A stretch of DNA of 64,000 nucleotides, taken from Felis catus (taxonomy: Eukaryota). Positions 1 to 62,052 of the stretch are shown here, one piece after another (position 1 is the stretch's first letter; every line of letters starts with the position of its first letter). Below the pieces are notes generated by a model. It saw nothing but the letters and a program-made list of their open reading frames with translations, made no database searches and was not told where the DNA came from. A program made the translations under genes and the position numbers. Where the stretch lies: contig NC_058368.1 of NCBI RefSeq assembly GCF_018350175.1, forward strand, positions 108,378,001 to 108,442,000, read 5' to 3'.

Positions 1-740
1 ATTCCACAGACCAGGAAGGTGAATTCTCAGTGACTCAAGGAACATCAACTTCCTGAAAAAAATCCACACACACTCAACTAAGAGAAGAACTGAAACGTGA
101 AGAAAAAGCTAAGACAACAATGAGGTAAATGAATGGTATCCATAAAAGGAAAACAAGTTATTAAACAAGGGTGGTTGTGAAAAATCATCAGTGGAGATTT
201 CATAAATGATTACTACAATTAGAAATTTAAAAGATGAAGAGCAGAACAGCAACTGGTCACAAGTGGAGAATCAGTGAGCTAGAAGATCAGACTGAAAATG
301 CATGGAGTGAAAATAAAGTATGAAACAAATGTTTAGAGATATTTTGGACAGATCCAGAGTTCTAACATCTGGAGCAATAAGACGAGAACTGCAGTTTTCA
401 AAAAATAAATTTCCCATAAATGAATACCCAGAGGAATCTTCAGCTTGAGAGAGACTTCCAGGTACCAAGAAAACAAAACAAAAATTACAACAATCCATAG
501 TAAAACTTCACGGCATAAAGGATAAAAATAAAATCCAAAGAAAAACACAACTAACCACAAACAACAAGAAAAACAGATTGCTTGACAAAGGAATAAGAAT
601 TAAAAGGAGTCCAGACTTCTCATCACTAACACTGGATGCCAAAAGACAAGGCATTAACTTTTTCAAAGTGCTAAAAAGAAAAGACTTTAGATTTATTATT
701 TTATATAATAAACAATTATTTTATAAATATAAAGTAAGGC
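1..740 (+). mobile_element. Old L1/HAL1 ORF1-like fragment
   Basis: A-rich decayed ORF1-like sequence, e.g. ...ccagacttctcatcactaacactggatgcc...ttcaaagtgctaaaaagaa... Confidence 0.55.
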
Positions 741-2516
741 ATTTTGAACATTTAAGTTCATCTACTCCCCTTTCTCCTTTCTCTTGCTGCTAGAACCACT
801 TATTCTGTTAAGAACATAAAAGAACTCAGAAGTAATGAAATCCAAGTAGTAGGGTGGGCAAAATACATGAATTAATAAATAAAAATCAGTAGGATGTACT
901 GGAAAATCAAAAGTACCAAGTATGAAAAATTAATCACAGGTTTAATGTGTTTAATCACAATCCAGAGTTAAAATTCCATCAGGAATAACATGAAAGATGG
1001 GGGAGGGGAAAAGGAGACATGTACTCTTTTATAAATACTTAATTTACATAGTCAAGTACTAATCACAGAATCCTGCTCAGATGGTATTTGCTGGCATCGA
1101 ATCAAACCTTAAAATCTGATTTTTTTTAAATCCCCTTTGGCTCTTCTACACTTGTTAAATCTTAAAAGTTGATTACCAGTACCACCAAGGTCTATTTTTT
1201 GTTGTTATTCTAAAAAAAACAACCCCTATATCTCATTCTTGATTTTCCTTAAAGCTTATTCATTTGGTCTCATCCATTTCCCTTCTGTATGTTTTAAACC
1301 TCAGTAGTGTCGCCATCAAGCATCCACAAAGCATGGACCCCACAGGTGGCATTTGTACTACAGAGGCCACCCTTGTCTTACCAGATAGTACAAATGAAGT
1401 GTATACCTATGTTTCTTTCCATCTCTTTACATTTCAATCAGTTGTTTGATAATGAATGTCAATGTCTTTCCAGAAACTGCATTTAAGAAAGATAGGCAGT
1501 GAGCCATCTTTCAGATAAAACTGTATACTACGACGACGCTATCCTAGTATTTCTCCCTTAGTCACCATCAGTAGGACAACCTTTAAACAAAGACATGATT
1601 TCATCCTAGGAAATGCCTCTATTGTGCCTGTCTCTATTCAACAAAACCATAAGGAAATCTTAACAGAGTCAATTAAAATGTTACTAACACATTTAGTTTT
1701 TATAAGACAAAACTAAAAATTCATACTACTCTGTTTTTGTTTTGAAATTTACATAACAGGAAAGAGAACTTGAGTGGCATCAGATTCCAGATCTATATAA
1801 ACAGCCAATATAAACAATGCAATTTATTAAATTACACTGTATATTTTCCTAAAACCTAGCATGTCCTTTTGTGTAGCATTCTGCTTTACTGTGAGTTAAT
1901 GTTTGCTTTAAAAAAAATGACAAATATAACAGATGCTATCTTAATGTCTCAAGCTACTAATAGTTCACTTACTACTATTTTTAAAATGCTTAAGAACACT
2001 ATAAAAAATTTTCATATAGTTCCTTTTAATAATAATTTTCTTCATATTCCACTGGTTAAGAATTACCCTGTCTTCCTAAAATTTCTGTGTGATAAAAATT
2101 TGTATAGCATAAGCTAGAGATTAGACTAACATAGCTATGTACCTCAACCACTTAAAATGAGGCAATACAATGCCACCAACTTAAAGAGTACACTCACAGA
2201 AAAGTACAGAAATAGCTATAACCAAATGATTCAGTCTGAAGACAGTACACCTCAAATGCATTACATTTTAAGTCTACAGATTATTAAGAAGGTTTTTTCA
2301 TATCCTCTTAGAGGTACATTAGGACACTTTAGAGATTCCTTTAAATTGGAAAACAAAATGGCCATGAGATTTAGCTTTTAAGACTGCTTTGTAATTCTTA
2401 TTTTTACAGTTTAGAAAATGTAACAGCACAATAAGGCTCATTTACAATTCAAAATAGAATTTAAATTTAATAACTAGATTATATCAATCTCTAAGAAAAT
2501 AATACACATTACTTAC

Positions 2517-2570
2517 TTTGGAGGCCCATGGCTGAAGACAATTGGCATAACAGCGAACAAGAAAAGCCAT
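2517..2570 (-). CDS. RAPGEF6: Putative alternative first coding exon (or cassette) of RAPGEF6: MAFLVRCYANCLQPWASK
   Basis: GAAATGG Kozak context, 18 open codons, then AAA|GTAAGT (2511-2516) in phase 0, the same phase as the end of exon 6. It resembles an alternative N-terminus I recall for the paralog RAPGEF2 (unverified). Confidence 0.75.
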
Positions 2571-5500
2571 TTCCTGGGCTGGAAAGGGTAGTTTCCTTTT
2601 CAAACCAGAGCCACACGGATGAGTATGATGACAAAATTCTGTTAAGTTTCTTTTTACAAATCATACGCCATTTGCAGTGTTATATAAAGGCAGATCCCAG
2701 ATCTCCAAATCCCTTTCACACTGAAATTAGGAGCTTTCAGTAGCTCAGAGTATTGTTCTAAATAACTGCAACAGTTTTCATCACAAGGTTCACTTTTAAC
2801 AAGCAAATCACAGCAAATTAAGATGTTTACATTTCTGGCTCAGTACATACAGACATACACATGCTTCCTCAGGCACCTGGCACAGACATGCACAGCGGTA
2901 ACACAACAGTTAATACGGTATCAATCAACGCAAATAAGGCAACATGCACCAAATCTGTGTTCCTGGATCCTGAGAAACCTTTCCTCTCTGTAACACAGCT
3001 TTGTCTCTTCTTCAACTTATTTCATTCTGTAGAGCAAGCACTGCAGTATTTCTTCTGCATCAGAAGCAAACCAGAACACTGTATCCTTAAAATGAAAGTT
3101 TCTTCTTGATATTCTTAATCACCAAAGGTTTAAAAAAAGAAAAATCAACCGTTGAGCAAGCAAATGGTACTTAAAAGATAGATATGCTCTAACAGGTTTG
3201 TCCTGGAGAATGCCTGAAAATCTCCAAAATTAAAATGTTCTCTTTTCACATGCACTATTTACAGCTCAGCAGTATTGCTTCTTGTTCTAATGCATCAGTA
3301 AGACAGTAATGTTGATCTAACTCTGGCTTTTCTGGTTGAAAATTTATATAGGATATGATACAAAAACCCTACATCTTCTGCTAAAACAAGACTATATGTT
3401 AGTGTTTTAATTCCTACTGTCCTTGCCTGTTTCACAGCAGCTCCCTAAGGAGAAGCTCCTATTGATTCCATGCTCTGCAGTAAGATGAAATATCTAATAA
3501 GAAGGAAAGAGAGTGGGAGGAGAATAGAGCTAAAAGGATGACATCACCTGTATAGAAAGCCTTCAGAAACTGCATTAGATCAATTGGCTACTGTATCTGC
3601 AGATGTAGCCCAAAAAGCAATTTACTGAGAACACACAGACACACACACACCCTTCCATGAGACACGTCAGCAAGCTAAATTCTATAAGAAAAAAAAAAAT
3701 TGGCAAGCAGCACCTCTCTATTTCAGTTTTAAAAAATCCATCTTGATTTTTAATTCTGTACATTGATACACAGCTTTATTTGGGAAGCAGATTTCCTAAT
3801 ATTATTATTCAAATTTAGCACAGGATTGTCCTCCCAAGGGAAAATAATTAGCTCTGGTAAGATACTTGCATTACAAATACATAAGGCAGCTCAGTTCTCA
3901 GATATCACACATGTATTTGTTACACTACTCATTCAGGGATTTCTGCCTGCAAAACTTCCCATTTATCAATTAACTGTTCTAAAACGTATAACCTTCAAGA
4001 TACTCTAAATTAACATCAAATATCAAAACTAGCACTAAGGTTTTCTGTAATTAGTACATTTAAGTGGAAACAATAGAATTGCATTTTGCAAAGGAAAGCT
4101 TTTACATCACAGGCACAACAGCCGACTTGCAGCATGTACCAACTCCTCTGAGGAAGAATAATCTATGCAATATGGTACTTTCCTGCAGCCCAATGCTCAA
4201 TTCCTAGAAAGACACAGGAAGCCAGTAAAACTCAGAAGCATAAGAGAAGAATGAAATTATAACTGCTTAAAAAATTGAGCTTGGACGGAAAATTAACCTC
4301 ATTTTGCTATAAAAATTACAGAAAAAAAATTTTTGCCACACCCTGTCCAATCTAAAAACACAATTCCTCTAGTACCCACCCTTACTCTTCACAGTTCTGC
4401 CACAAGGCATCTATTGCAGATACTCCTATGAGGAGCTTGCACTTAAGGTGGTAATGTTGCCTCCCAATGGCGAAAAAAAGACACAGTTTCCAACGGTAAA
4501 ATGCTTGGTACACCTTCAGACAATAAAATTCTGAGACTTACAACTGATGAACAAAGCAGAGGAGTACAATTATTTTGCTTTATTAACTTAACACTATTAT
4601 GAAGACAAGGGGTATGCAACGTAAGAGAAGAAATTATAACCTGAGAGATAGGTGTTACTACAAAGGACTCCACTGTCAAAGAAACATCTTGTCATTAGCA
4701 CACATCCCCCCATACCCCAAAAAAGAGGTCTTCAATACCTCTGGGCAAAGTATGAGTCACTTTCTCAACAATACAATGCTGCCAATCTGAATTATGCTGT
4801 TACTTACAAAACTACAATTAACTTTAGTAAAGCTAAATATTATTCTGAACAAAGACAACTCATGCTTTCAAAATATGTGATCACTTATGAATCAAGATTT
4901 CTATAAAACTTAAGAATTATGTTTTCTGCAAAAATTTCAAAGGAATACATGTAAAAATTTTGCGTTTAAATGTAAAATTAAATTTCAAAAGTACAAATGA
5001 GCATGAGTAGCTTTCTAAACATAAAACATGGAAAATATATAGAGGCTGATTTTCAAACACCAATGTATTTTTTTCAATTATTTTAAACAAACTACAATGA
5101 GTTGGGAGTTTCACCATAATGTTAAGCATTCAAGAATAAATTAGCTAAAATCTAATTTTAATCACTCATTTTTTAAAACAGAAAAATGACAGCAGTCACT
5201 GTATGTAAATGAAGCCCAACAATTCCTAAAGATAAATTTCTAAAAGACAAGCCTTTGTACATAAACATCTGTAACATGACTTAAAAGAGTATTTCAGTTT
5301 CAGTGGGAGATAATAATTACATTCATGTACAGTACCAACAGGATAAATTATTACCAAATCAAAAATAAAATCATAATGGTCACGTTTCCCCCTTTTTATA
5401 ATAAATCATGCTGATAGCACACAAAGAAGGACCTCAAGCTGAGCAAGGGAGAGCTATCTCTTAGCTGCTTAAAGAAACTGCTGCCCTGTGTGTGAAATGC

Positions 5501-7514
5501 AATCCACTAAAAGCCATATGTTAGAAACTACTATTGTAAACACCAATTCAATAAAGCAACAATTCTCTTTTCCTTCAGTGTGGCCTGGAAGTGAAGATGA
5601 CATCACCCTTTTCCTTGTTCTACACATCATCTCATACTATGTGCCCTTCTAGGGAACCCTATGGCGAATCGTGCGTGCAGACTCTCCCTGTGCAACAATA
5701 CCATGAAAGAAACAAATAGGCCAAGTCCTATATTCAGCTATGAATCCACCAGCACTCTGATGGTACACCAGACCACATTACTTCTTCAGAAAGAACAACA
5801 TGACCTCTTAATTAATGAAGGAAGAAATAAACATCTTTTGAAGAGAATAGTCAGTAATTTGTCAAATCACTAAAAATATGATCAGGTGAAAGAACATTTT
5901 TTTCACTTCCATCATTTTTAGAATTTTATTGTGATCTCATTCCATTATCTTACCATTTCAAATGAAGTAATTGCAGCAAGGAGAATGCCCTGATCTACAC
6001 ATTATCTAGGGATCATCACCACAGGATAGCCATTTAAGAATACATTTCCCCTGTACATCAAACGCCATAATGCTAAGCCACATAAGATGAAATCTTTAGC
6101 TTCAGGAGGATCCTCTGCACCACCATAAAATAAAGCAATCAACCTATATTGGCTTTGAAAGCTTCAAAGCATTACAAAGTTATTTTTATAAAAATCTAGA
6201 TGCTATACAGCTAAGATATAAAATGTATGTTAACTGTATAAACTATATCTAAACAAAAATACAAACCAAAACATCTGAACTCATATTGCATAGAAAGCCA
6301 AAATGAAGTTCTGATAGATGCTAAACTAGAAGTATACTTTGTACTTAATAAGCAACAACACTGAAAAGCAGGAGAAAAAAGGTCATTAGGGATAAAGGTA
6401 AGTTATCAGAGAATATACATTCCAGACATAAAAACAAAAAAACAACAATAAGAAAAACCAGGTCATAGTAATGTCAGGCAGTCATACCGTTTATTTCCCA
6501 TCTGCACATTGAAATACTGCAATCACAACTTAAGAGAAACCGATCTCAAAAGCATGTGAACAAAAGAAAAATTATGGAGTTTCACAAAATAAAATAAACA
6601 GGCCACTCATTTCTGTATTTCAGTTTTATGTATTTGGTCTTCAAAATATAAACTGCTAAATGTATGGATTTATATAGTAAAAACACTTTAACCCTTTTGG
6701 AAGATGAATGACCGTTTACCGTAATGGCAGAGGTAACATACAAGCCCCTTTAAAAGATCACAGCAAGCTTTCCCACCTCTTCCTCATCCCTTGCTTAACT
6801 TGAACATTTGAAATGAATCTTCATTAAGTTACCAGACATAGTTAACTCTGATTACTGGTGCCCCTCAGGAATTCCTGATTTCAAATTGCATTCTATCTAT
6901 TCGTCAGCCTTTCTGAAAATAGGGAAGCCAGAGTATCAACACTCTCCTCCTATTCTTTTGTAAGAAAAGTGTGCTTCAGCACACGATCATCTATGTCCAC
7001 TAAATGGTCAGCACCATGCTGTTGAAAACTCTGTTAAAGCTACCAGCAGGACACATAAGCACTATGAAATATGATCCTTCCTTAGGGAGTGATCAAGGAA
7101 GAAAAAGCAAAGGAGAGGGAAGCCTTCATCACCAACTAAGGTGATGTAAGCTTCTATAATTAGAATCAGTGAAACTGAAGGAACAATAAAAAGGCACACC
7201 ACACTTCCACTTTCCCCTACACTGTGCAGTTATATGAAGCATTTTTCACTCATTCAATCACCTACACACACATGCAAATAAATACATTCTATGTGTAAAC
7301 AGTCAAATGTGCTATACACTATATGCAAAGCTAATGTAAAGTTTTAAAATACTGTATTTTCTTTAAAAATGAGGTCTACCCATAATTAAAATAGAGCTAT
7401 ATATAAAGATAAGTGGAAAAATAAATCTCATTTAAAAGATTAAACTATTGAGAATATTCTCTCCATCTGAAGATTCGTGGATTATATTTGAGACCACCTT
7501 TAAATCACTTCTCT

Positions 7515-7702
7515 ATTTTTTTTTTTTTTTTTTTGAGAGTGAAAGAACAAGTGGTAGAGGGTCAGAGAGACAGAATCCCAAGCAGGCTCCGCACTGTCAG
7601 TGCAAAGCCCAATGTGGGAATCCAATTCCTGAACCATGAGATCATGACCTGAGACAAAATCAAGAGTTGGGTCACTTAACTGACTGAGCACCCAGGCGCC
7701 CC
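7515..7702 (-). mobile_element. CanSINE
   Basis: Poly-T, GA tract and ...cccaggcgcccc head; TSD tcacttctcta. Confidence 0.88.
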
Positions 7703-7922
7703 TCACTTCTCTAATTTTAAATAATGCATTTTCTAGTACTATAAAAGCCAAATGCTGAACAAAGCATAGTTTCTGAACAGATAACAAATCAAACTAAAAA
7801 GCAATAAAAATCAGCATTAATGTGTTTGCTATGTCTCAGTAGTTATAATTCTTCCAACCCAAATGTTCTTGAAAATCATTACCTTGGGCCTCTGGTATAT
7901 ATTAATATCAGAGTTGCTTCAA

Positions 7923-8132
7923 TTTTTTTTTTTTAACGTTTTATTTATTTTTGAGACAGAGAGAGACAGAGCATGAACTGGGGAGGGGCAGAGAAAGAGG
8001 GAGACACAGAATTGGAAGCAGGCTCCAGGCTCAGCCATCAGCCCAGAGCCCGACGCGGGGCTCGAACTCACCGCGAGATCGTGACTTGAGCTGAAGTCGG
8101 ACACTTAACCCACTGAGCCACCCAGGCGCCCC
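7923..8132 (-). mobile_element. Young CanSINE (SINEC_Fc-type)
   Basis: Near-consensus with CpGs retained; TSD tatcagagttgcttcaa on both sides. Confidence 0.92.
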
Positions 8133-8994
8133 GTATCAGAGTTGCTTCAAACAATCTTCAGAAGAGGTTTCATTAGCAGCTACTGCATAAAGTTTCAAGT
8201 AAGTTAACAACAATTTTCCAATTCTGGTTCCCTGAGCAGATCCATATGAATGAGTGTCACCTTAAAAGACAAAGGAGACCAAAAGAGCACACCCTGCACT
8301 CCTTGAGCTCCCAACATTCCTGAAGTTCATAAAAAAGTGACTGATCAAGACAATTTCTTAAAACGACCATTTAGAAGTTAGCAATACTTATGTAGAGCCT
8401 TAAAAATAATTTTTATATCCTTAATCCAGTAATTTAACTTCTACTAATCAACCCTAAGAAAAAAAAATCCAAGTCCAGTTAACTCATACACGTTGTTTGT
8501 AATAGGGAGAAAAAGTAGAAGCTGCATGGGAATCCTATGTTACACTCGTATGATATAATATTAATATTATATGTTTTGGGAAAAAATTGCATGTGTAGTA
8601 GAAAGGTAGGAGATATAAAAATTCAGCACTATCTAAATTAGAAGATCTGAATTAATCAAGATATATTTAAAAATCGTTAGCAACACTAGCTATCTCTGGT
8701 TTCAGGATTACAGCAAGTTTCTCTCTTAATGTTCTTGCATGTTTTTACATTTCTACAATGAGCATTTTTTCTTCAGAATTTTTTTTTAAACTGCTCCAGG
8801 CAGGCATCTGTCCTTAGTTCGATTACAGTATCACCCCTTTGCTTTTTCTCTGTCCATTGGTGGACTCATCACCCTCTAACTAGGTACAAGAACTTCCTGT
8901 CAAGAATTCCACATTATTTCTCAGGAGGCAAATGGGAAGAATTTTCCTACTTGGAGATGTTATACACTCATGAATTGAGAGGACAGTCCTCTTC

Positions 8995-9262
8995 TGTAAT
9001 GAAGGTGCAAAGCACCACCACTATAAAAGCACTCTGGAGCCTTTATAAAAGAGGCCTAACAAAGCTACCTAGCCCTTTCCATCATGTGAGCAGACAGTGA
9101 GAGGTCAGAGTCTGTAAGCTGAGAGGCTTTCACCAGAACCCAAACATGCCTGCACCCTCATCTTAAAATTTCGACCTCTAGACCTGTGAAAAATAAATTT
9201 GTGTTATTTATAAACCACTCAGTCTGTGGCATTTTGTTACAGCGGCCTGAATGGACTAAGAC
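8995..9262 (+). mobile_element. MaLR LTR (MLT1A-like), internally deleted
   Basis: Typical MLT1 3' end: aataaatttgtgttatttataaaccactcagtctgtggcattttgttacagc...gactaagaca. Near-TSD tcttc/tcctc. Confidence 0.75.
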
Positions 9263-10689
9263 ATCCTCCATAAGGAGATTTCAGGAATCATATGTGTGGA
9301 CCAAAGTCCTCTAATTTCTGATGAGCTTTCAGGGGGCAGGATCTCATTTCTTACCACAGGAATGGCTTGATAAATAAAACACTCACAGTCTCTACCAAAG
9401 CAGAACACATTTTGCTAAAAAACTTAAGATGTCACATTCATGGACCAGTACAAGAATAGAGCCATTATTCAGGATACCAACATAAAGGTGGTTACATGAT
9501 CTGATCCTAATAATCACCTCCTATTCAGGTGTACTGACAATTATGTCTTAATCTTGCTAAATATGCTCTGAATCCAAACTCAACAGTCTGCACCGCACCG
9601 CAGGAGAGCAGGAAATTTAAGATGAAATCAAAGAGGGTGCAGAAGAGGAAGAGCTGCATGCCTCATTATAATTTGTGCACCTAAAATCAGATTCTAGAGT
9701 ATCGTACCATACCTACCACCTGCATACGTTCCTAGAACAATGAACTGTAGAAAGAAAATCTATAAAGGTGACCAAAAGGAAGCCCTCTAAATTTAAAACC
9801 ATGACCCATGATGCTTCCATGGAAATCCCTCTTTCCATGTGTCTTTTTGCCAACAGTTTAATGGTTCCACTTAAATGCAGGTGCCATGATGGAGAAAGAG
9901 AAAAGCATGACCAGTGGCTTATCCTGTGCCTGAGAATGTAAAAAGCAACATAGGGGACAAGAAAGAAAAAAATGTAGTCTACTGAGGAACGTGGGACCTA
10001 GTTAAGAGAAGATAACAAGCACACCAAACAACCATACTGTTCCTTATTCAAAAATATAGCAGGAGCAAGGAGAAATCAATAAAAAGGGCTCTAATTTCAT
10101 AAATGAAGTACCAAAACACCAAGATTTTTTTAAACCTTTGAAGAATGTCCCTATTTACATTTCAGTTATTGATGTTTTCACAAAAATGAGCATGAATGTT
10201 CTCTGGTATTCTGGGAATTCATTTCAAGTTAACTAAAGGCATACTTGGTGCTTGACTTTGGTGAAACCAAGATACTTCCCCCTTACTGATCCTGCTTTAA
10301 TTTTACCATTTAACTTCACATATATACACCAGTATTAAAAATTCAACTCATTACATTTGAAAAATTTTCACCACTGATGGCAATTAAAACACAGCAATCA
10401 ACTTTACGTAAAAAAAATACAGACATGCAGGAAATTCTTAAATAAGTTGTTTACTCTGTTTTCTGGAAGGCACAGTAGGATACCATTCTGGACAAAAGGA
10501 GGAAATGTTAAAATTCAAACTGCTTCATCAAAGGACAGAATTACCTTAGGTAAAGAATGCTCTAAGAACAGGGAGAGAGAAAAACAGGACCAAAGGAAAG
10601 GACCTCCAACAAAATAATGATGCTAGAAAGCTAAAAAAATAAACTAGTGCCAAGTGAGGAAGACATTTAAAAACCAACTAATCTCAAAC

Positions 10690-10900
10690 TTTTTATTTTT
10701 TTTAAAGTTTATTCATTTTGAGAGAAACAGCACATGCAAGCAGGGAAGAGGTACAGAGACAGGGAGAGAGAGAATCCCAAGCACACTCCACGCTGTCAGC
10801 ACAGAGCCCCACGAGGGGCATGATCCCACAAACCACAAGATCATGATGCAATCAAAACCAAGAGTCAGATGCTTAACCATCTGAGCCACCCAGGCACCCC
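10690..10900 (-). mobile_element. CanSINE
   Basis: Ends ...gagccacccaggcacccc; the tail is at the left. Confidence 0.85.
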
Positions 10901-11435
10901 TCGAAAATATTTTGTGTTCATTATGAAATAGACACAAAACTTGCCAGAAATTTAAAAGGATAATACTACATATAAATAAAAACTATTTTCTTCCCATGTC
11001 CGAGGACTGTTTTGCAATTTACATTTTAAGACACTTGAACTAAACTACTGGCTTTGCTAACTACTATCACAAAGAAGCCCTTCAAATCAGTAATCCCAAA
11101 ACCAGTGATCAGTTTTTGGCAGACATCTCCTGTTGTCATTTAATTGGACTCTAGCTACTTACTGTATACAGAAAAGCACACTTTCAGTGACTTTCATATA
11201 CATTGAGTAACCACTTTACCCCTTAAGGTTGGACAAAGAAATTACCTTGTTTGAAGTGAGCTACTATGAATACACACTACAAAAATAATTTGGGTGCGGT
11301 GAGGACAGCGGCAGTTGGCTGACTATTGGTTGTCCTAACCTCAAGCCAGCTTGATTTTCTTTTTCCTTTCCCTTTGCTCTAATTCTTTAGCTTGTTTTTG
11401 ATTATATTAACATATTTAAATATCTTTTCAATAAC

Positions 11436-11637
11436 TTTTTTTTAAGTTTATTTATTTATTTTGAGAGTGAGCGAGTAGGTGAGAGACAGAGATAGGGAGA
11501 GAGAGAGAATCCTAAGCAAGCTTCACACTGTCAGCACCAGAGCTGGATGCAGGGCTCAACCTCATGAATTGTGAGATGGAGACCTGAGCTGAAACTGAGA
11601 GCCGAATGCTTAACTGACTGAGCCACCCAGGCTCCCC
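11436..11637 (-). mobile_element. CanSINE
   Basis: tttatttattttgagag...ctgagccacccaggctcccc. Confidence 0.85.
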
Positions 11638-14600
11638 AACATGCTTAAATATCTTGGATGTATTTCATACTCAGCTACATAATAAATAGGAAAATCATTT
11701 TGTAAGCAACAAAAACAAAGACTGAGTATTTACAATAACAAGAGGAACAGAAGTTGCTGACATAATGAAAGTTTTTCAGAGCACCAAACACTAGGCAGAA
11801 ACTTTTACATAAATTCTCTCATTTAATCCTTTCATAAATTTATAGATTATTTATGAAAACAGATGCAGGAAAGTTACAAAATGTGCCCAAAGTTACACAG
11901 GAATCTAAAGAAGCTGATGGGGGAAAAAAAGGCAATCTCATTTTGAAAGATAGTAAGTTCAGAGGACACAATGATGATGGTTCTGTTCACATTTTCAAGG
12001 CAAGTATCTGATGTGACAGGTGGACAACTGAACAAATGATTACAATACAGTCTCATGAAAGATCACAAATATATACATGGGATACAGAGATGTGTACCTA
12101 ACTCTTCCCCAAAATCACAGAGGCTTCCCATGAAATGATATGGAATTGAGTCTTGAGGACAATTAAGATTTTTGCCAAAAAGACAAAAAATAAAAGACCA
12201 TTCTAAGTAAAAGGAACAGTATATGTAAAAGATGATTATACCAACAGGTTTCTAAGCCTTCAACACATGCATATCCACACATATACAGTCATCATATTGC
12301 AATATAATATATATATCAAATATCATGCTGTATACTTTAAACTTACATAGTGTTTGTTATATGTGAATTATATCTCAGTAAAGCTGAAAATAGGGGCACC
12401 AGGGTGGCTCAGTCAGTTCAACGTGTGGCTCTTGATTTCAAGTCAGGCTGTGATCTCATGGCTCATGGACACAGTAATTAATTAGGTATCTTTTAATGAA
12501 GAGACTATGAAACACTTTCCAATTTAGAAAAAATTTTCCATATCTCTTAAAATGAAAAAAATATTCCTTTTACAGTGTAAGTGGGCTGGAGTAGTATGAG
12601 AGATGCTATTACAAGAGTTCTAGAAAGAATGGCAGTGAACACTAAGGCAATCACATGGAGAGACTGACAGGTGAGGAGGGTATACATCTTGAAACATTTG
12701 AAAGGAAGTGTCTAGAGATATTACTGACTGATTAGACTATGAGTGTACAAACATGTTCCCATGTACTTCAGCAACCACCCCGTAACACAGGCAGACAAAT
12801 ATTAACCTCAGTTTCTGAGCGAAAGCAACCAAAGCATGAAGGATTTAGATGAAATGCCCCAATCATACGGAAAGTAAGGAAGAAGTCAAGACAGATGTCT
12901 CCTGTAACTGCTTGACTATTTCCAGTTGGCATAATTACCCATCTTATTCACTTATTACTCCCAATCACCTTTTTGCTATTTCTAAATATGAAACACACCT
13001 TACTCAAAGATCCAAACCTTAAAATATTCTCACAGAGAGCATCTGAAAACATTTAAATTTGTTGAAAACTCTGAGAGGAATACCCAAAGAAGTTTCAAAA
13101 ACATAACTGTCAGGAATGCTCTTTTAACATTAAGAAAAACAACCTTTCCCTTTCCCATTATAGTTCTCATCTTTACATAAAGCAATATATGACAAAAATA
13201 TGAAAATAATTCATAAAAATAAACCATTCTTTTCAATCCTTCTAAGCGTTCAGTTACAGAATAAAACAGGCCAAGTCTTTAGTACTCACAAAACTTTGAT
13301 GTATAGGTTATATACTAATAATACTTATGACAAAGGATAGTAACAAATTATTCCGTACATCTTTAAGAATTTTTGACCTTCAGCAGTTTAGCAAGAAAAG
13401 GTTGATGATAGTTTGCAAATGAAAAGATAAACTCAGCTACTGTCTAAAAGAAAAAACGCTTCCTTTTGATCTCTCTGAATCGCTGACAGAAGAACAAAAG
13501 AAGTAAAGGGCCCCAGAGTAGCCATAAAACCAATTTTCTACTGGATGTTTTCACAAATACTAATTAACATTTTTGCTACACAGCAGCATCCTTATCTAGA
13601 CCAACTATCAATATATAGGTATTTGAACAGACGCATAGGTTTTACATACTGGTGACTTTAATGAAAAGTCAATGAAAAGCTCTTATAATCTTTTCCAAGT
13701 TGCCTGAAATATATCCCTTTTAGAATCAAAAGCAAACACACACTATTATTTCAAGAAACAGCAAATGCAAGTATCATGACCAAAAATCTAATCTCATAGT
13801 TATTAACTACCCTGAATCAACTTAGCTCTTCCCTCTGCCAAATCCCGGACAGTACTTAGTAGGCTGAGTACTTAAAACTAGCAATAGAAGCCTTTAAATG
13901 CAACAATGCCACACTTCACTTAGACTCATCAAATGGACTGAATCCCAAGCAGTGTGCCTGTTGCTCTTTCTGGTCCACTCAGGAACCCAGCATAACCCCA
14001 AGACGACAACTTTCAGCACACATGAGAGTTACAAGTAAATGACATGAGCATAAGCTATAGCTACCTAGAGGAAATATAGAATCTATTAGGCTTCATGACA
14101 TGACACTAAAATAATCTAAGAACACACTAGAGCTGAGACTGGAGTAAGTAATCCAAACACACATACAAACTATGCACTCTAGCTCATATAAGGAAAACCA
14201 AATAATGCAATTAAAGGTACTTTAATTTAGAAATTCTACTTCTTAGAACTTTTCTAAAGAAACCAATAACTGGACACATGTAACCACAAAGACAATTAGC
14301 GTTAAAAAAAAAAAAACCTAAAAATTCTGAATGACCAAATATTGGGGAGTAAATAAATTATGACAATTAATATAATGGAGTATTAGGACACTATAAAGAG
14401 ACACTAGTAAGGGTAATGTAAAAAAATTTTCTTTAAGAGCATTCAAAGATGTTCAGATTACACATGTAAGTTTTAAAAAGTTATAAAGCAAAACACATGT
14501 TTAAGTTTTACAAGTTGGCTAAAAAGCCTATATATTTATCTTTAGGTAGAAAGAACCTTTATCCAAGAATATACAAAATATCATCAACGGTTACATAACT

Positions 14601-15521
14601 AGGTGGTAATGACTAGTCAACTTTCAATTTTTCTAAAACAGGCATGTACTACTTGCATAATAATGCAAAACATGTTCATTTAAATTAATTCTTTATGGGG
14701 GAATTTATTACATAAAAAGAAATTATTTTTTTAAAGAAATGATTAAATAAAAAGAACAGGAAATGAACACTGTGTACCTCTGGATGTGGTGAAAAAAATA
14801 GGGGATCAATTCATGTAACTCTTTGTTGTTGGAAATAGAATGTATGGAATCAATGAAGTTAGGCAAACATGGCTAAATCCTTTGAGCTGTCTTAAATGTA
14901 ACACTTATTCCACTATACAAAACTCCCTAAATAATCCTCCTTACTCCTAACATGGAAGGAAGCATTTCTGTTTCTGACAACCAAATGAATTAAACATACT
15001 CTCGGGAATTTTGCTGCAATCAATCTCTAGACTGTTTTTATATTTATATTTTATTTTTTGCAATCAATCTTTAGACTGTTTTCTTTGAAAACTGATAAAA
15101 TACACCTGGATTTAGCCTTTCGTATATTATTCTTAATTCTTGATTCAAACACTTTTTAGTTTAAAATGAAGTTCTCTACAATTACAAAACTGAAGACTTC
15201 TGGAGAAACAGCTTATGTTTCTTGTGGTGTGACAAAAGCTAATTATTTCATCTGCTTCTCTTTTTTCAATATTTGCATGTGAAAACCTATCGCTAACACT
15301 TGCGCATGTTTCTGTACTAACACACAGTATTTGTATTTCTCTCATATCACAAGGGAAAAAGTGACATATTTTTCTTTCTTTACCTGTCTTACAGCTTATC
15401 AGGAAAAAAGCTCCCAACGAGTCTATTACCTGAGTTCTCAGCTAGAACTCTAATCTATATTCCATTCAGGCAATAAAAAGGCAAGAAAATCCACAAGTAA
15501 GTTCTAAAAAGATATGGTAAG

Positions 15522-15524
<3 letters not shown>

Positions 15525-15563
<39 letters not shown>
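15525..15563. repeat. T39 homopolymer (A39 on the gene strand)
   Basis: Seen directly; no flanking TSD. Confidence 0.9.
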
Positions 15564-15572
<9 letters not shown>

Positions 15573-15787
15573 AAACAAAACCAAAAGTAAAGCAAAACTT
15601 CCACTGGTACATACAAGCATTTCTACCAAACTCAAGTGAGAAGTATTTTAACAAATGAAATACATTTATTTGTCTCAAAATTTTATCCATTAAGCCCAAA
15701 GTGATGCTATTATCAAAAATATATGTAAATTAAAGATACTATATAAAAATTAAGGAAAATCCATGAACTATTCCTATATATACTCAC

Positions 15788-15931
15788 AGAAAGATAGCTG
15801 TTAATGTCCACGTCATCGGTAATGGTTTGGCGCTCTCCTTTATAATTAATTTTCCGAAACCTTCGTCGAGACTGTCTGGCAGGAATTTCTCTTTGTAGAA
15901 TACTATCTTCATTATCTTTGGAATTTTCTAC
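15788..15931 (-). CDS. RAPGEF6: RAPGEF6 coding exon (exon 6), 144 bp, phase 0-0: VENSKDNEDSILQREIPARQSRRRFRKINYKGERQTITDDVDINSYLS
   Basis: Lies within ORF 15713..16012. Boundaries are gtgtttcag|GTAGAA...TATCTTTCT|gtgagt. The peptide is recognisable as RAPGEF6 rather than RAPGEF2. Confidence 0.96.
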
Positions 15932-36068: not shown

Positions 36069-36138
36069 CACAATCATTTCTGAAGGCTCTAATACAAGAC
36101 AATCACATCCTCTTTTTCCTCCAAACTGCTTACCAAAA
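36069..36138 (-). CDS. RAPGEF6: RAPGEF6 coding exon (exon 5), 70 bp, phase 2-0: (S)FGKQFGGKRGCDCLVLEPSEMIV
   Basis: Lies within ORF 35982..36173. Boundaries are ttttttttatag|TTTTGGTAAG...ATGATTGTG|gtaaga. Confidence 0.96.
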
Positions 36139-51783: not shown

Positions 51784-54094
51784 AGGCACAATGTTTGGTT
51801 GGTTTTTTGATTCTAGAGGTAACATATACTGAGTGTGCTACTTTGACCCATTTTCAGCGTCACCCACAAGGCTGTAAGCAAATTCAAAATAGAGGATAAG
51901 CCACTGAACCATTGCAGTCTTACGAACCTGCACATCTAATGGTACGTATAGGGTCCATGGCAAACACAGATGCTCTACAGAAACTCTCCCAAGCACTAAT
52001 ATGAGAATGATAGTGCAGATGTCTACAATTTCTGAAACACTTATGATCTCCTCTGCAAATAACTATTATCCTTTTGAGAAACAAGCTCTGGCTTGCTACT
52101 GGGCCTTAGCAGACGCTGAATGACTAACCACAGGACATCAGATGACAATGCTGCCTGAACTTCCTATAATGAACTGCATAGTTAACCACAAGTGCCAGGC
52201 AGGGCAGTAGCCATCTGTTATGGAAAATAAGAAACTGAATTTACCCAAGAGCTGGTAGGTAGATCAGACTCCAACATCAACTCCTATTGCAGTGCCTCCT
52301 CTACCTCAATCTATGCTTATGGCTACCTAGGGAATTCCTTATGACCAGCTGACAGAAGAAGAAAAACTGTGAGCCTGTTTTATCAATGGGTCTGCACCCA
52401 AAAGTGGACAGCCAAGAGGTCACTCAGACATAACCCCCAAGGAAGATGGTAAAGGAAAATTGACCCAGGGAATAGAATTACAAGCAATACATTTAGTTGT
52501 CCTTTTTTCTGGATTTAGAGATGGCCGGAATTATTGATGAAAAGAGATTCAAGGGAAATTACTAATGGTATGGCTGAAAGGTTAGGGACCAGGAACGAAT
52601 AGGATTGAAAGGAAGATTGGTAACAAAAAGTCTGGGAAGTGGTATGTAGAAGGACTTCTTTCAGAATGGGCATAGACTTTCAATATATCTGTATCTCATA
52701 TGAATGCCTGAAAGGCATCCATCGTGAACGAGGCTTTAATAATGAGGTGACTAAAATGCCACGCTCTGTGGAAGTCATCCAAACTCTTCCCTCAGCTACA
52801 CCAGTGCTTGTTCAATGGGCCCATGAATAAAGTGGCCATGGTGGCAGAGATGGAGAATATGCAGGGCTTAACTGTTAATGCTACTGCTAGGAACCTAATC
52901 TGCCAACATGAGAGATTAACAGAAAGTCTCCTTATGGGGACCAGCCAGCCACCTAGGGCCAGATTATTTACAGTGAACTTTTCCTGTCATGGAAGAGGCA
53001 GGTATTTGTCCTCATTGGAATAAACACATATTCTGGAAATGATCTACCTTCCACATCCATAATGCTTCTGCCAGCACCACTATCCATGGGCTCACAAAAT
53101 GCCTGCTCTACCATCCTGGCACTCTAGACAACACTATTTTTGATCAAGGCACTCATTTTGCAACAGCCTATGTACAGCAAGGGTTTCTGTCTCCCCCAAT
53201 AACCAGAACACACAGATCTGATATTCAAGGCATGGAAGTAAGAGCGGCTCTTCCCACTACTATAACTAGTAACGCATTCAGAATTTTTGCTGCCCATCCA
53301 AAAAACTTTGTTCTGGTTTTGAGTCCTAGTGCCCAAAAGAAGATTGCTTCTATGAGGAAACACAATGGTTCCACTGACTTAGATACTTTCACCTGGCCAA
53401 TGAACCAACAGGCAGGGGAAGGGGTTACTCTAAAGGCCTGAGTAATTGATCACAATCACAAGCACAAACTGAGTTGCTGCAAAAAATGGGGGGATTCCCT
53501 TAGGCTCCTTGTACTACCATGTCCACTATTCAAAGTTTATGGAAAACTACCACCACCAACACAACAGAGCAGGACATTTAAGGACCCATCAGAAATGAAG
53601 ATTTTGTTAACATCATCAGGTAAAGGATGCAGAACGGATGAACGTCTGGCTTACGGCAGAAATACTGAATGGGTAGCTAAAGAAGGAAGCCAGAGGTACC
53701 AATTACAGCCATGTGACCAATCACAGAAATAAGAAATATAGGATATTTTTTTCCTTTGTTTATTGCATTTATGTCTGTATTTATGTAAATGTTAACCATT
53801 TTCTTCTTCCCTCTGTTTCCCTTATTTATTTTAAGTATAGTTTGGTGGAAGCGAACTTTAGTCTTTGGTTAACAGAATTTTCAAAAGCACTGTGATGCAC
53901 TATATAATTAATATAACCAGTAATGATTGTTAGGACTGTGCAATTCCTTATTTTAGGGACAAGGTAAGAAATTCTTCACTGGTACAAAAGACAGCTGTAT
54001 CTTTTAAGGTGACAACAGAGTTGTTTTGTTGTTGGATGGGAGTTCAAATTTGTTTAGAAGCATCCATGTAGAAGCTAAGGGACTCAGAGTGGAC
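51615..54094 (+). mobile_element. Decayed ERV-L internal region (pol: RT thumb/connection, RNase H, integrase, dUTPase-like remnant)
   Basis: Hand translations: NYYPFEKQALACYWALADAE*LTTGHQMTMLPELPIMN (from 52061), QWAHE*SGHGGRDG (about 52813), FVLIGINTYSG (about 53005) and ASASTTIHGLTKCLLYHPG...DQGTHF (about 53064-53159). All match HERV-L/MERVL pol motifs. Stops and frameshifts occur throughout. Confidence 0.88.
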
Positions 54095-54664
54095 TGTGCC
54101 AGTTATCCACTGCCTTTCAATTGGAAATACATTCATGCTGTTTCAAATCTACTTTCCAATAAAGGATCTAGATTCAGTTAATGCTATCCTTCTGCCAGCT
54201 GAAAATGCTAAAACTTTGTCAGTAGAGGGTGCTAGCAGAAGAACAATGCAATAGAAAAATTGTCTTTCTCAAGGGGAAGGGAAGGGAGAAGTGCACCAGT
54301 GTGTGCGTGTGTCAAGGCAAAGGAGGTCCTGTCCCCAGCCTCAGGGCCCAACCACACCCTAGCAGGGGGAGGGGAAGTTCTCTGGTCAGCCCTGGTCAGC
54401 AGTTCCCTTCCTGCCAGCCCTGACCCTATGACTGAGGACGAGGTCTGGCACAGGCAACCCAGTGAAGTTCTCCACTACCTACTGGGGCTACAACTAACAT
54501 ACTTCCAACAAAATCTGAAATCATGAGGAGAGGGCCCCCCTGCCAAATTTGTTCTTTACTTGGGTACTCTCCCTTAGCTCCTTTACCCTTCTTAGTGCCT
54601 AATCTCTTAAATTAAACTTTCCATGTTCGAATTACTGTGTGGTTTCTGTCTCCTGACTAATGCA
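54095..54664 (+). mobile_element. 3' LTR of the ERV-L element (LTR33/LTR41-like)
   Basis: Follows the internal region, starts TG and ends ...gtggtttctgtctcctgactaatgCA, as ERVL LTR33-type 3' ends do. It contains gtcagtagagggtgc. Confidence 0.65.
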
Positions 54665-57607: not shown

Positions 57608-57691
57608 CTGCAAGGAGGCAAGACCATGGAGTCTTTCATAAGCACAGATCCAGAAAGCAGGATATACCAACATCGGGCAACAGTTTCTGAA
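57608..57691 (-). CDS. RAPGEF6: RAPGEF6 coding exon (exon 4), 84 bp, phase 2-2: (C)SETVARCWYILLSGSVLMKDSMVLPPC(S)
   Basis: Minus strand reads ttgaacag|TTCAGAAACTGTT...CCTCCTTGCAG|gtatgt. It contains the WYILLSGSV motif of the N-terminal cNMP-binding-like region of RAPGEF2/6. Confidence 0.95.
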
Positions 57692-61995: not shown

Positions 61996-62052
61996 CAAAA
62001 AAGAATTTGATTGCCACTGTATCTCTCATAGCGTGCTCTTGCAGACATTAAT
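61996..62052 (-). CDS. RAPGEF6: RAPGEF6 coding exon (exon 3), 57 bp, phase 2-2: (R)LMSARARYERYSGNQILF(C)
   Basis: Minus strand reads ttttttttaatatgttag|ATTAATGTCTGCAAGA...ATTCTTTTTTG|gtaagt. The translation matches the recalled RAPGEF6 N-terminus and is in frame with the next exon. Confidence 0.95.

Follow-up and report, generated by a model that had tools for sequence, protein, structure and literature searches.

Can RAPGEF6 be started from within its intron 6, and if so, what would such a start give to the protein? The question is raised by a 64,000-nucleotide stretch of the Felis catus genome (RefSeq assembly GCF_018350175.1, contig NC_058368.1, positions 108,378,001 to 108,442,000; hereafter the window), which carries part of RAPGEF6, a gene for a guanine nucleotide exchange factor (GEF) of Rap, on its minus strand. 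In a first-pass annotation, a short open frame in intron 6 had been read as a hidden exon that provides an alternative N-terminus. We conclude that it is almost certainly a real alternative first coding exon of RAPGEF6, and it is under purifying selection. The full account that we propose is of a vertebrate-conserved first exon that would yield a short, neuronal RAPGEF6 tethered to membranes by its acylated leader; taken as a whole, we consider it evenly poised between right and wrong.

The exon and its twin in RAPGEF2

On the minus strand, 18 codons are open from the ATG at position 2570 (MAFLVRCYANCLQPWASK). This ATG has a G at both -3 and +4, and the frame ends in phase 0 at a consensus GTAAGT donor, so that the sequence reads as first described. 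From the donor at 2516-2511, an intron of 11,162 nucleotides leads to exon 7, which lies outside the window. This exon starts with LPADLTK (the LPAD exon), is in phase 0 and has a pyrimidine-rich AG ahead of it (C1:108369354). That position and the exon boundaries bear out the expectation that exon 6 ends in phase 0 and that the next exon accepts this phase.

We then asked how unusual such a frame is. On the minus strand of window positions 1-15787, the combination of a purine at -3, ATG-G, 10-40 open codons and a phase-0 GTRAG donor occurred once, at this exon. A DNA search of the whole genome (2.43 Gb) yielded two matches, the exon itself and one paralogous copy (E=5.8e-16), and the genome-wide protein search returned the same two. 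No Pfam family was matched by the 58-residue open frame around the exon.

The second copy, at C11:68527123-68527213 (83% identity), belongs to RAPGEF2. It lies 39 kb upstream of the RAPGEF2 LPAD exon and downstream of the RAPGEF2 equivalents of exons 5 and 6. In the cat genome the two leaders share 17 of 18 residues, and the donor has the same place and phase; the near-identical RAPGEF2 start that had been suggested thus exists, at the equivalent position. Similarity between the paralogs reaches about 34 nucleotides upstream of the ATG and ends at the donor (local alignment; blastn 2512-2604, 83% identity). Within the coding part there are eight base changes, seven of them synonymous at third positions and one a replacement (A16/S16), giving a proportion of synonymous differences (pS) of 0.61 and of nonsynonymous differences (pN) of 0.024 (Fisher p=3e-5). 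The single start-frame-donor pattern of its kind, the two genome-wide matches and the synonymous paralog changes together exclude a chance origin of the exon.

The RAPGEF2 twin has been published. In mouse, Rapgef2 transcripts fall into exon 1 and exon 1' clusters upstream of the LPAD exon (Jiang et al. 2017, PMC5611689). A reverse transcription-PCR (RT-PCR) product termed Rapgef2-MAF was obtained from brain only, and detectable RAPGEF2 protein went only with exon 1' transcripts (MAF, MKP and MLP), instability or a translational block being proposed for the long form (PMC5611689). We equated Rapgef2-MAF with the exon described here by its three-letter name and its position, the text of that paper giving the name only. 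The RAPGEF6 exon shares several features of a MAF-type first exon, among them a frame with a phase-0 donor before LPAD, homology with RAPGEF2 and codon-level selection, and we refer to its product as the MAF leader. The RAPGEF2 MKP exon was also located (Table 1). A blastn comparison between the two introns revealed no MKP-like first exon in RAPGEF6 intron 6, and the further matches were repeat-like among the 60 listed, long matches having been filtered out.

Database isoforms, age and domain content of the short form

We collected 151 proteins, gathered by similarity to the leader, which inflates counts of invariance. A search with the 58-residue open frame found the leader in all 68 candidates, and a second search used residues 1-62 of P0021, an unnamed Logan protein (best 120 of 1,479 matches listed). 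In total, 77 of the 151 proteins contain the leader. It is joined to an LPAD-type exon in 58 of them and stands at residue 1 in 57 of these 58, the exception being a frog RAPGEF2 model extended upstream inside the same exon. In the remaining 19 the frame continues into intron sequence. A search for shorter proteins with the RAPGEF2 frame gave eight proteins, of which the seven new ones were unspliced read-throughs.

Under the name RAPGEF6, leader-bearing entries exist for pika, deer mouse, voles, hamster, guinea pig, mole, tortoise, quail, frogs, lungfish and teleosts; under the name RAPGEF2, they exist for narwhal, snub-nosed monkey, frogs and salamanders. RefSeq/UniRef predictions of RAPGEF6 with the leader include XP_054550419.1 (mole, X7), XP_058533710.1 (pika, X6), XP_074924233.1 (tortoise, X8) and XP_017947625.1 (Xenopus tropicalis, X5). 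Among the cluster representatives and some of their members listed, there was no leader-bearing RAPGEF6 entry from human or from the cat family. The isoforms of other species support the proposed junction between the intron 6 exon and the LPAD exon. They also show that the exon is not hidden, since its leader is already present in predicted isoforms; the first-pass annotation had itself allowed for this, and that part of its statement holds. P0021 is encoded by a contig of 1,705 nucleotides. Its frame runs from the leader into four exons that are spread over 28 kb of the cat genome, so P0021 most likely derives from spliced RNA.

Among proteins P0081-P0087, the RAPGEF2 leaders of salamanders show W15R and some frog copies differ at positions 16-17; apart from this, residues 1-14 hardly vary.

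To date the leader, P0021 was searched against 1.84 billion representatives. There were 832 matches, of which the best 150 were examined, with one isoform shown per cluster. Among these 150 the leader was present only in the query and in a hagfish protein (P0161, Eptatretus burgeri), whose cluster mate is from Myxine glutinosa. Both hagfish proteins have 15 of the 18 leader residues, including C7 and C11, in a search that scored mostly on the downstream domain. The insect isoforms checked are devoid of the leader, and no invertebrate leader was found among the best 150 of 832 matches with one isoform per cluster. We built a tree from 19 selected proteins (406 columns; long branches flagged), in which leader-bearing proteins fell in the RAPGEF6 clade (98/99 support) and in the RAPGEF2 clade (81/86), and the hagfish pair had no settled place. 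Because it occurs in both paralog clades and in hagfish, the leader predates the split between RAPGEF2 and RAPGEF6, as had been suspected. A single origin before jawed and jawless vertebrates separated would be the simplest reading of this distribution. That separation took place over 500 million years ago.

We also determined which domains the short form would retain. The MAF form (P0035) has the cyclic nucleotide monophosphate (cNMP)-binding, RasGEF_N (REM), PDZ, RA and RasGEF domains of Pfam, with the main cNMP-binding domain (PF00027) at residues 156-234. The 165 residues that it lacks have no Pfam match. When the lost region was compared with a profile of the downstream cNMP region, all 17 distinct versions scored 11-18 bits, against less than 0 for reversed controls, and hhalign aligned the two regions over 77 columns (probability 85%, E=6e-6). 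These alignments show the lost N-terminal region to be a degenerate cNMP-like region, and the loss of such a region from an isoform devoid of exons 1-6 had been anticipated correctly; the main cNMP-binding domain is retained.

Start site, skipped exons and consequences for variants

The features of the locus are given in Table 1. Coding exons of RAPGEF6 were located by tblastn with long RAPGEF6 proteins; four of them fall within the window, each on the minus strand.

Table 1. Positions of RAPGEF6 features in the window, and of one RAPGEF2 exon used for comparison
Feature	Position	Strand	Basis and remarks
Splice donor GTAAGT, consensus, phase 0	2511..2516	-	Donor position shared by the RAPGEF2 copy
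Coding part of the alternative first exon (MAF leader)	2517..2570	-	18 codons; paralog codon pattern; residues 1-18 of database isoforms
Likely proximal 5' untranslated region (UTR), similar in RAPGEF6 and RAPGEF2	2571..2604	-	Local alignment; blastn; AG scan
Two upstream ATGs	2654..2671	-	2671 (-101), 5-codon frame; 2664 (-94), out of frame, overlaps exon
TATA-like word, candidate core promoter (inferred)	2680..2686	-	116 nucleotides upstream of ATG; sole such word in 600 nucleotides upstream
RAPGEF6 exon 6	15788..15931	-	tblastn; 48 codons, starts and ends in phase 0; not in MAF isoform
RAPGEF6 exon 5	36069..36138	-	tblastn; absent from MAF isoform
RAPGEF6 exon 4	57608..57691	-	tblastn; part of degenerate cNMP-like region; contains Pro92
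RAPGEF6 exon 3	61996..62052	-	tblastn; part of degenerate cNMP-like region
MKP first exon of RAPGEF2	L002:605-664	-	0.9 kb downstream of the RAPGEF2 MAF exon

From the TATA-like word at -116 we infer that the RAPGEF6 MAF exon may have a promoter of its own; the RAPGEF2 copy has no such word. If transcription starts about 30 nucleotides past it, both upstream ATGs are excluded from the transcript, and these ATGs would be relevant only for transcripts that start upstream of them. Because mouse Rapgef2-MAF was obtained from brain only, we expect the RAPGEF6 MAF form to be expressed in brain and neurons as well, and a brain bias of the RAPGEF6 exon is quite probable by this analogy.

The 5' region of the RAPGEF2 exon (L002:1560-1680, minus strand) resembles frog sequence over about 120 nucleotides, across a frame change. 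A longer upstream reading frame was considered and rejected, as the similarity to the extension of the frog model crosses that frame change. Five-codon upstream frames are found in both genes, at -64 in RAPGEF2 and at -101 in RAPGEF6.

Exons 3 to 6 make up 355 of the 495 nucleotides that code for the 165 residues before the LPAD exon. The other 140 lie outside the window and would correspond to two exons, matching the earlier numbering of intron 6. Four database proteins that skip exon 6 have 117 residues ahead of the LPAD exon and show that an in-frame junction of exon 5 with exon 7 is possible too. In an unnamed JGI protein (P0071), the PDZ-coding exon runs back into the LPAD exon, an order expected of a back-spliced circular RAPGEF6 RNA or of an assembly artefact. 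On the plus strand, positions 51900-54550 are GC-richer, with several broken open frames of up to 132 codons, and look like a decayed processed pseudogene.

An internal first exon alters how variants and knockouts of RAPGEF6 are read. RAPGEF6 and RAPGEF2 are Rap GTPase activators in brain development and psychiatric candidate genes (PMC4490285, PMC13260025). A de novo RAPGEF6 frameshift, c.272dup p.Pro92Serfs*6, was interpreted on the canonical transcript as a loss-of-function change, in a report whose main text does not contain the word 'isoform' (PMC13260025). The long RAPGEF6 proteins checked have a proline at position 92, which is encoded by exon 4, upstream of the alternative first exon; p.Pro92Serfs*6 would therefore spare the short isoform, and if that form is expressed in human neurons, the allele would still produce short RAPGEF6. 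Both forms would be removed by the exon 2-11 deletion and by the exon 21 knockout described in PMC4490285.

Possible functions of the leader and related systems

In the account that we propose, transcription would start from an internal, probably neuronal promoter, and the alternative first exon would be joined in frame to exon 7, as in database isoforms of other species, to give a short RAPGEF6. Its 18-residue leader would form an amphipathic helix, S-acylated at C7 and C11, that tethers the Rap GEF to membranes. The last step is drawn from pattern and analogy, and we put it forward tentatively, on mixed and rather weak evidence, as a proposal that falls just short of being probable; S-palmitoylation of C7 and C11 is itself plausible by comparison with other leaders. 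On a helical wheel, L4, C7, Y8, C11 and W15 occupy one face and A2, R6, A9, N10 and Q13 the other, with the two cysteines spaced i/i+4. The hydrophobic moment exceeded that of shuffled sequences at p<0.05 in four of eight segment/scale tests (range 0.004-0.17), and two hagfish changes, V5M and Q13R, respect the pattern of faces. AlphaFold2, run on the lungfish protein P0037 with 35 sequences, predicted a helix at residues 2-18, separated from the cNMP region by about 80 disordered residues, a picture that weakly fits a free anchor or a docking motif on a long tether. Like known acylated leaders, the MAF leader is short and isoform specific and has conserved cysteines near its N-terminus. [quoted passage not shown]

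Several observations weigh against an acylated anchor or against the account around it. The other four amphipathicity tests did not reach significance, and the predicted leader helix has a predicted local distance difference test (pLDDT) score of only 42-47. R6 and N10, on the polar face, are as invariant as the cysteines, beyond what a lipid anchor needs. Nearly all leader entries are predicted models. In another palmitoylome the RAPGEF2 peptides were at C377 and C1251, not in the leader, and no release of RAPGEF2 from brain membranes by hydroxylamine was seen (ratio to control 0.78, not significant) (PMC12874130). The leader peptide was not found in the palmitoylome tables searched (PMC5498535, PMC12874130, PMC9004782), whose search databases probably do not contain it; two supplementary files of PMC5498535 and five of PMC5468251 gave no match. 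A marker peptide is numbered 372 in PMC12874130, compared with 370 in MAF isoforms. This numbering is consistent with the 20-residue MKP leader in the mouse entry used there, which probably put the MAF peptide out of reach of that search.

It may be instead that the exon is real but that the leader is a protein-docking helix, whose cysteines do not carry lipids but belong to the binding surface or act as a redox switch. We regard this as possible but somewhat unlikely. Both helix faces are nearly invariant from hagfish to mammals. In the same 57 proteins, 14 of 18 columns are invariant in the leader as against 20 of 44 in exon 7, a comparison biased by the similarity-based collection of the proteins. 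The cysteines have a single basic residue in their vicinity, and the hydroxylamine result on RAPGEF2 points the same way. However, a docking helix has no known partner, and no solved structure resembles the leader: a search against PDB sequences gave six matches at E<=10, the best at 0.59, all at chance level. The spacing of the cysteines and the face on which they lie also fit acylation. Docking and acylation need not exclude each other.

Alternatively, the exon might matter for regulation, a neuronal promoter and the removal of the N-terminal region leading to a stable, translated protein, with the leader sequence of little account. The restriction of detectable RAPGEF2 protein to exon 1' transcripts speaks for this (PMC5611689). 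Nevertheless, the unrelated MKP and MLP leaders do the same in RAPGEF2, and regulation alone therefore fails to explain a pN of 0.024 with a pS of 0.61, or the 15 of 18 residues identical in hagfish. Furthermore, the canonical transcript encodes the long RAPGEF6 (PMC13260025). This explanation appears improbable.

We also considered an internal cassette exon, in which exon 6 would be spliced to an AG just before the ATG and 19 residues inserted into full-length RAPGEF6. In both paralogs an in-frame, acceptor-like AG does end 3 nucleotides before the ATG, within the likely proximal 5' UTR, with 71% pyrimidines upstream, and exon 6 ends in phase 0. Yet exon 6 precedes the leader in none of the 58 spliced leader-bearing proteins, the upstream similarity to the frog RAPGEF2 model crosses a frame change as in a contiguous UTR, and the mouse twin has been reported to be a first exon (PMC5611689), which makes a cassette very unlikely. 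Finally, a conserved non-coding element that mimics an exon and has spread through predicted annotations is hardly credible: most RAPGEF6 entries are XP_ or Ensembl-type predictions and 19 of the 77 leader-bearing proteins read into the intron, but seven of the eight paralog differences are synonymous, the contig of P0021 most likely comes from spliced RNA and the mouse twin was amplified by RT-PCR (PMC5611689).

The exon is thus already known, being present in database models and published as its RAPGEF2 twin, and it is in itself ordinary biology, with 18 residues that have hardly altered since hagfish. In the open-access literature, covered mostly by titles, we found no paper on the RAPGEF6 MAF form or on the function of its leader, no title on RAPGEF2 palmitoylation and no occurrence of the string 'maflvrc'. 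The parts of PMC8359155 and PMC4917737 consulted contain nothing on a RAPGEF6 MAF isoform, the supplementary files of PMC11584674 searched gave no match, and the material consulted from PMC6825209 has gene-level read counts only. Taken furthest, the acylated anchor would be a lipid-anchor leader with an age of over 500 million years, giving membrane-tethered neuronal RAPGEF2 and RAPGEF6. The short MAF form would be a main neuronal form of RAPGEF6, so that truncations in exons 1-6 such as p.Pro92Serfs*6 would not be full loss-of-function alleles there, and leader acylation might explain differences between RAPGEF2 in neurons and in recombinant assays. We consider this extension doubtful.

The closest known counterparts are the RefSeq/UniRef predicted RAPGEF6 isoforms, which start with exactly this peptide followed by an LPAD-type exon but are gene models without functional data. 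Rapgef2-MAF, of the NCS-Rapgef2 exon 1' cluster, is the direct paralog, with 17 of 18 residues in common, an identical donor phase and an equivalent position before the LPAD exon. It differs in belonging to RAPGEF2, which has further first exons, and in that RT-PCR data exist for it; the sections of PMC5611689 consulted mention no RAPGEF6 twin and no test of the leader. As models of function we compared the MAF leader with GRIP1b and GRIP2b/pABP-L, whose palmitoylated alternative N-termini have 19 and 18 residues, respectively, with PSD-95 alpha (PMC6365469) and with PDE10A2, which is anchored by palmitoylation at C11 (PMC6955301). Acylation is demonstrated in those proteins, whereas it is predicted for the MAF leader, and we assume no sequence relationship. 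All the same, they too have short, isoform-specific, cysteine-bearing leaders on synaptic PDZ or cyclic-nucleotide proteins. In each of them the leader decides the membrane location of its own protein, and the MAF leader may work likewise.

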